From assembly GCF_056712565.1 (NCBI RefSeq), contig NZ_CM160072.1: DNA of 64,000 nt. One strand, written 5' to 3'. How positions within the stretch are numbered: the stretch's first letter is position 1; each line of letters begins with the position of its first letter. A program made the position numbers and the translations under genes. Positions 49,238-49,270 of the stretch are shown here, one piece after another. A model generated the notes under the pieces. The model was not told the DNA's origin, searched no databases, and was given only the letters and a program-made list of their open reading frames with translations.

Positions 49238-49270
49238 AAAAAAAAGCCGACTCTTAAAGTCGGCTTTAAT
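49238..49270 (-). terminator. Hairpin (GCCGAC-tcttaaa-GTCGGC) followed by U8 on the minus strand, between upp and uraA
   Basis: Stem-loop and T/A runs read directly; on the upp strand the hairpin is followed by TTTTTTTT. Confidence 0.6.

Follow-up and report, generated by a model that had tools for sequence, protein, structure and literature searches.

A conserved hairpin with a U8 tract as a probable partial intrinsic terminator within the upp-uraA operon

Introduction

The classic example of an operon-internal partial intrinsic terminator is found at rplL-rpoB. In Bacillus subtilis, the uracil permease gene is immediately preceded by a terminator that forms part of the PyrR-dependent attenuator of pyrR-pyrP; the gene before this terminator encodes a protein with uracil phosphoribosyltransferase activity.

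Other operon-internal partial terminators, including those of prs-dauA and dapA-bamC, are evident in SMRT-Cappable-seq data. In these operons a hairpin and U-tract follow the promoter-proximal gene, terminated and readthrough RNAs originate from one start, and the downstream gene is expressed by readthrough only. The attenuator of E. coli rph-pyrE is also intercistronic, belongs to a pyrimidine-metabolism operon and is followed by a leader of 30-40 nt before the downstream AUG (positions 1001-1037 of our locus L082 from MG1655, minus strand). Pyrimidine-dependent readthrough is established for pyrE and has recently been restated (PMC11228462). The influence of a trailing ribosome has been described for the tR2 terminator in E. 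coli, which is almost fully repressed when placed a few bp after a stop codon, has an efficiency of 0.12-0.8 at 17-18 bp from the stop codon, and reaches its maximal efficiency (about 0.9) only beyond ~27-30 bp (PMC4824070).

Here we analysed the spacer between upp and uraA in a 64,000-nt stretch of DNA, referred to below as the window (NCBI RefSeq assembly GCF_056712565.1, contig NZ_CM160072.1). A preliminary description of the window, made from its sequence, had placed a terminator-like hairpin between upp and uraA at 49238-49270; these coordinates proved accurate, and the flanking genes are indeed upp and uraA. We consider it about 85% probable that the element is a Rho-independent (intrinsic) partial terminator inside the upp-uraA operon, as first proposed there. 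This reading is directly supported by the structure of the element, its conservation, 3' ends mapped in vivo to the U-tract, and two transcript isoforms from one start. Compared with the operon-internal partial terminators described above nothing essential differs, and the upp-uraA hairpin lies unusually near the upstream stop codon.

Results

Structure of the upp-uraA spacer

The 181 bases aligned around the hairpin are identical to E. coli K-12 MG1655, and MG1655 coordinates are obtained by adding 2,570,963 to window positions. The spacer between upp and uraA is 85 nt long in the window, and in E. coli the hairpin begins 15-18 nt downstream of the stop codon of upp. The features of the locus, in order of transcription, are:

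49978..49951, minus strand: upp promoter TTGCCG-16-TATAAT (promoter and start-site region 49944..49978)
49283..49909, minus strand: upp coding sequence, the upstream gene
49283..49285, minus strand: upp stop codon UAA
49243..49267, minus strand: terminator hairpin AAAGCCGACU-UUAAG-AGUCGGCUUU, from folding and scan; found in 79/79 Enterobacterales loci
49264-49258 paired with 49252-49246, minus strand: 7-bp perfect core of the hairpin
49238..49245, minus strand: U8 tract, with published in vivo 3' ends at 49235-49239 (MG1655 2620198-2620202)
49198..49237, minus strand: uraA leader of 40 nt, present only in readthrough transcripts
49210-49205, minus strand: Shine-Dalgarno sequence AGAGGA of uraA
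49197-49195, minus strand: uraA AUG
47908..49197, minus strand: uraA coding sequence, the downstream gene

On the minus strand, the upp UAA is followed by AGAAUAAAAAUAAUU, the hairpin (49267..49243), U8 (49245..49238) and GAG. The first three U of the U8 tract are also the last three bases of the 3' arm of the hairpin, and can pair with an upstream AAA. The preliminary description had seen a 6-bp GC-rich stem followed by U8. Its U8 and GC-richness were borne out, but the core is a perfect stem of 7 bp rather than 6 (GCCGACU/AGUCGGC), with 5 G-C among its 7 Watson-Crick pairs and U8 directly 3'. Three A-U pairs and one U.G pair lengthen the stem to 10-11 bp.

Folding of the 35-nt hairpin segment gave a free energy of -15.1 kcal/mol, compared with -3.7 +/- 2.1 kcal/mol for dinucleotide shuffles (z = -5.6), and none of 200 shuffles folded equally well. 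The 96-nt spacer region folded into one dominant hairpin, with no alternative structure predicted. A consensus scan of positions 46500-52500 under lax criteria returned four terminator-like matches, against 7.5 expected from shuffles, and so showed no enrichment; the upp-uraA hairpin had the longest stem of the four (11 pairs, 5 of them G-C). Under strict criteria (7 or more bp of unbroken stem, 5 or more of them G-C, then directly at least 7 T), two sites were found on both strands of the 64-kb window, against a mean of 0.01 in 100 shuffles, such hairpins being ~200-fold rarer in shuffled sequence. The second of these sites, with no others in the window, lies at 59940-59966 on the minus strand and reads CCCTCTGT-TACT-ACAGAGGG followed by T7.

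Three further sequence features were noted at this locus. On the plus strand, the hairpin at 49243-49267 is also terminator-like, with the T-rich tail AATTATTTTT; no gene reads into it from that side, and no plus-strand entry was present among the TRS entries shown for the position. The reading frame past the upp UAA stays open for 16 codons through the hairpin and U-tract (49232-49285, minus strand), ending in UAA at 49234-49232. This is probably a coincidence, since spacer lengths elsewhere differ by non-multiples of three. After the upp promoter, a T7 run lies in the initially transcribed region (49937-49978, minus strand; GATTTTTTTG), which we take to be the site of UTP-sensitive start-site choice and reiterative transcription. 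The start site mapped by SMRT-Cappable-seq, MG1655 2620909 (window 49946), agrees with start-site choice at this run.

Transcript ends and readthrough in vivo

The preliminary description had proposed mapping of transcript 3' ends at the hairpin. Such ends are already known, having been present in published genome-wide maps since at least 2018, and SMRT-Cappable-seq and TRS, two independent data sets, both place them at the U-tract. In rich medium, SMRT-Cappable-seq recorded a primary transcript covering upp alone, from 2620909 to 2620201, with 24 reads stopping at the latter position (PMC6131387, Supplementary Data 1). MG1655 2620201 corresponds to window 49238, the final U of U8. This end was typed 'novelTTS', meaning that no known termination site was given beside it (PMC6131387). 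Analysis of RNAtag-seq/Term-seq data by TRS located minus-strand 3' termini at 2620196-2620207, with peaks at 2620202, 2620200 and 2620198 whose R values, defined as '1 minus local readthrough', were 0.97, 0.92 and 1.0 respectively (PMC10687069). The gene-end terminators listed beside the upp entry had similar R values (bamC 0.95-1.0, guaA 0.98-1.0), and the termini were labelled 'Alternative primary in TU' for upp, with the same hairpin and 8/8 U (PMC10687069). Among the 3' ends curated from Term-seq by Adams et al. 2021, none was listed for upp or uraA; these are thresholded lists and constitute weak counter-evidence. The Rho-region table of the same study had no upp or uraA entry. A literature search found no in vitro termination assay for the upp-uraA hairpin.

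We infer that these ends arise by termination. End mapping as such is blind to the difference between termination and trimming back to a stable hairpin, and the ends could instead be exonuclease stops following endonucleolytic cleavage, which would make the element a stabiliser of upp mRNA and not a terminator. Many SMRT reads from the upp start run past the site, as this would predict, and the TRS peaks are spread over 2620198-2620202, up to 3 nt past the last U. However, the principal SMRT end coincides with the last U, 8 nt past the stem, which is the canonical release point; SMRT-Cappable-seq captures primary transcripts with 5'-triphosphates; and the U8 tract adjoining the stem, a requirement of termination and not of an exonuclease block, is invariant or nearly so in 79 species. 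We therefore regard trimming as an unlikely origin of the ends.

The preliminary description had taken upp and uraA to be co-transcribed and had suggested that the hairpin could act as an attenuator setting their expression ratio. Co-transcription with partial termination is supported by the occurrence of both upp-only and upp-uraA RNAs from 2620909. The upp-uraA transcript (2620909 to 2618838) was present in rich medium and in M9, and the SMRT operon table contains three variants, upp, upp-uraA and upp-uraA-hda, which all start at 2620909 (PMC6131387). The terminated and readthrough transcripts thus have a common start site within the same library. No start site for uraA alone is present in the SMRT operon table (PMC6131387). 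Since all variants start at 2620909, uraA appears to be expressed by readthrough, and the hairpin is therefore predicted to set the upp:uraA ratio.

In rich medium, 24/214 SMRT reads stopped at 2620201 and at least 139/214 reached the end of uraA, the pass-through counts being uncertain (PMC6131387). In M9, 142/260 reads from the start site reached the end of uraA (PMC6131387). The upp-only end at 2620201 was called in rich medium only, and not in M9 (SMRT-Cappable-seq, PMC6131387). The column labels of the rich-medium sheet are inconsistent with the arithmetic of its rows, and the library was size-selected for cDNA of at least 1 kb, which disfavours and under-counts the 709-nt upp-only RNA. 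For these two reasons we take the counts as showing that both isoforms exist, and not as a measure of termination efficiency.

At the 3' end of uraA (47871-47899, minus strand) there is a good hairpin (CCGGGCAG...CUGCCCGG) with a U-poor tail (UUCAAACAU), and published 3' ends after uraA lie at MG1655 2618834-2618838. In M9, 37 SMRT reads stop there and 95 continue, and the upp-uraA-hda variant was classed as novel (PMC6131387). This suggests that hda may be partly co-transcribed with the uracil genes.

Conservation in Enterobacterales

We collected upp loci by an Upp protein scan of one genome per species, which gave 80 loci across Enterobacterales, 79 of which extend far enough to show uraA. 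The genera covered include Escherichia, Citrobacter, Enterobacter, Raoultella, Kosakonia, Cedecea, Serratia, Yersinia, Pantoea, Erwinia, Dickeya, Brenneria, Rahnella, Hafnia and Edwardsiella. The uraA gene follows upp in 79/79 loci, and every one of these 79 species has exactly one AGCCGAC-N6/7-GTCGGC-T8-G in its upp-uraA spacer. Across the arms and tail, 16 of 22 columns are invariant, the U8 tract is invariant or nearly so, and all seven core pairs can form in 100% of sequences. By comparison, pairwise identity among these species averages 0.48 at the 4-fold degenerate sites of upp, of which 1/78 is invariant. The neighbouring terminator after uraA, which served as a control, varies between genera and is less strongly conserved in sequence than the upp-uraA hairpin. 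The spacer ranges from 56 to 533 nt among species, and insertions on either side leave the hairpin intact. In the uraA leader, an SD-like AGAGGA/GAGGA is common to the species and the remainder is poorly conserved.

The few substitutions in the stem are all compatible with pairing. They comprise changes of A-U to G.U in six species and of G-C to G.U in two, and a lone double change of G-C to A-U in Erwinia persicina. Covariation is uninformative in a stem that is nearly without variation, and the support comes from conservation and not from compensatory change. The loop occurs as 26 sequences of two lengths, giving a half-site spacing of 6 or 7 nt. As judged from these alignments, the pattern indicates strong purifying selection on the stem and U-tract, with a free loop and G.U-compatible changes.

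A perfect palindrome of almost invariant sequence could also act at the level of DNA, either as the operator bound by a dimeric regulator or by contributing to an internal promoter of uraA, and a single weak promoter-like match, TTGGTA-16-AATAAT (9/12; 49296..49269), does end just upstream of the hairpin. Promoter-like sites are not enriched in the region, though, with 4 found against 4.8 expected, and the SMRT operon table gives uraA no start besides 2620909. The centre of the palindrome is without conservation, and the substitutions all keep RNA pairing, including G.U pairs that are meaningless in DNA. The free loop, variable spacing and G.U-type changes therefore fit an RNA hairpin and not a DNA operator. 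A DNA operator was rejected on account of the variable half-site spacing and the G.U-type stem substitutions, and any DNA-level role is highly improbable.

Comparison with RNA families gave only terminator-like matches of low score. In an Rfam search, no family reached its gathering threshold, the best scores being 28.1, 25.6 and 23.8 bits against thresholds of 55, 47 and 47. The upp 3' end might be the source of a 3'-UTR-derived small RNA in which the terminator serves as the Hfq module, since Hfq usually binds RNA 3' ends through a hairpin and a long U-tail; there is also weak similarity to the enterobacterial sRNA models STnc240 (28 bits) and STnc430 (26 bits). These scores are far under gathering (55 and 47), with E-values of 0.25-0.4, as for any terminator, and the 3' UTR of ~45 nt has no conservation and no conserved seed-like stretch outside the hairpin. 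We consider such a small RNA very unlikely.

The Bacillus pyrR-pyrP system works through a PyrR-binding anti-antiterminator stem-loop, whereas the upp-uraA element has neither a match to the PyrR model nor a conserved loop. The Rfam PyrR model did not match the upp-uraA spacer even at E <= 1. The CAGAGA loop of Pantoea is like part of a PyrR box and is clade-specific. PyrR-type control was excluded on the basis of the absent model match, the 26 loops and the absence of a predicted alternative structure.

Several spacers have been enlarged. In Yersinia (L057, L064, L067) and Pantoea (L062, L069), insertions of ~130-180 nt separate the upp stop from the hairpin and share the core gtacgctccggtttct..gcgctgtccgtg..caaa.tgcctg. 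From their sequence, these insertions resemble a miniature mobile element whose arrival between upp and the terminator left the hairpin undisturbed. The 533-nt spacer of Brenneria roseae (L070) carries tandem repeats of ~90 nt between the conserved hairpin and uraA, each ending in a terminator-like hairpin of its own (aaaaacgcctttggcgttttttt). The upp-uraA hairpin element itself occurs once per genome in 5425/5426 complete E. coli genomes, in which it is unannotated, and a repeat or mobile element was rejected as its identity on the basis of this single copy.

Comparison with the rph-pyrE attenuator

The upp-uraA hairpin is close to the E. coli rph-pyrE attenuator, which reads AAGGCGACU-GAUG-AGUCGCCUU-U8-G and folds with -14.7 kcal/mol, against the -15.1 kcal/mol of upp-uraA. 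The two have in common 5/6 core pairs, the GACU/AGUC top, and U8 followed by G. This resemblance raises the possibility that the partial terminator is in addition sensitive to pyrimidines, in the manner of rph-pyrE or pyrBI. Low UTP would slow the polymerase, a ribosome ending upp would then hinder folding of the hairpin, and readthrough into uraA would rise, so that uracil uptake is raised relative to Upp when UTP is low. This proposal refines the partial terminator and does not replace it.

The position of the hairpin may allow for such coupling. The wild-type rph stop is 5 nt before the pyrE stem, and in 31/79 species the upp-uraA hairpin starts 4-11 nt after the upp stop, with the G of GCCGAC at position 6-12 (position 8 in pyrE). 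These distances, like the 15-18 nt of E. coli and 39 other species, fall within the ribosome-sensitive zone reported for tR2; the E. coli distance is past direct steric overlap and still inside the sensitive zone of under 27 nt (PMC4824070). Against this, E. coli and 39 other species have 13-19 nt between the upp stop and the G-C core, and a hairpin can reportedly fold completely once 10-15 nt of RNA are free. In addition, in eight species an insertion separates the upp stop and the hairpin by over 90 nt. The hairpin is fully conserved there as well, and its conserved role therefore cannot depend on upp translation.

Expression data point in both directions. A hint in favour is that the call of the upp-only 3' end was confined to rich medium and absent in M9; against it, the share of SMRT reads reaching the uraA end was not higher in M9 (142/260) than in rich medium (139/214). 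The uraA gene (5.7-fold, in an rph+ strain) is among the AZT-induced pyrimidine genes dependent on SspA/LexA, and SspA/LexA-dependent control of pyrBI and pyrE maps to their attenuator terminators (PMC11228462). Pyrimidine-dependent readthrough has been shown for pyrE and is only a candidate feature for upp-uraA; our literature search found no paper reporting it for the latter.

The same stem and U8 also occur at unrelated genes. A metagenome scan for GCCGAC-N6/7-GTCGGC-T8 found 120 stretches, of which 39 adjoin upp and/or uraA and 81 lie elsewhere. A pyrimidine-gene-specific sequence motif was rejected, as 81/120 matches are unrelated to upp or uraA. In one recurrent case (L161, L168 and ~13 similar metagenome loci), enterobacterial contigs carry the stem, prefixed by a conserved CGTACGAC, between an upstream zntB-like gene and a downstream dbpA-like helicase gene (names read from ORF translations). 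This terminator on the zntB/dbpA side is unrelated and has converged on the same stem. GCCGAC/GTCGGC is thus a generic good terminator stem, and there is no case for a sequence-specific factor. Since the stem recurs at unrelated genes, the resemblance to pyrE may have arisen by convergence on an effective terminator.

Taking both sides together, we regard pyrimidine-sensitive readthrough at upp-uraA as a tentative, rather doubtful refinement. Its strongest form, in which the hairpin is a second, ribosome- and UTP-sensitive attenuator of the rph-pyrE type that uncouples expression of the transporter from that of Upp in response to pyrimidine supply, and in which the near-invariant stem and U8 reflect selection on tuned, regulated readthrough, is similarly improbable.

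Discussion

The upp-uraA hairpin is real, functional and ordinary in kind. In the proposed mechanism of a leaky intrinsic terminator, RNA polymerase from the upp promoter would transcribe upp, and the GC-rich hairpin would fold in the nascent RNA. The weak rU:dA hybrid of the U8 tract would let part of the polymerases release their RNA at 49238, yielding a ~0.7-kb upp-only mRNA whose 3' hairpin should also shield it from exonucleases. The remaining polymerases would continue to give the upp-uraA and upp-uraA-hda mRNAs, the only recorded source of uraA message, and the membrane transporter UraA would be transcribed less than the soluble enzyme Upp.

The position of the hairpin probably contributes to the leak, in that a ribosome finishing upp would interfere with folding of the terminator. 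Proximity to the stop codon is therefore a possible reason why a thermodynamically strong terminator still permits expression of uraA. The ribosome's contribution, like the size of the readthrough fraction, is inferred.

The only mildly unusual points about this element are the order-wide invariance of its stem and U8 and its resemblance to the pyrE attenuator. It is otherwise a further example of a well-understood class. The strict conservation and the likeness to pyrE raise a question for specialists in pyrimidine regulation, namely whether readthrough into uraA depends on pyrimidines.

A partial terminator at this position shows how plentiful Upp enzyme and little UraA transporter can come from a single promoter. 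Retaining or eliminating the hairpin in constructs or deletions would alter uraA expression, and hence the uptake of uracil and 5-fluorouracil. The primers of a published upp deletion have a 3' homology arm consisting of the hairpin and its flanks (window 49233-49282; PMC11200800), and such upp deletions therefore retain the terminator before uraA. In strains of this type, the retained terminator may affect uraA expression.
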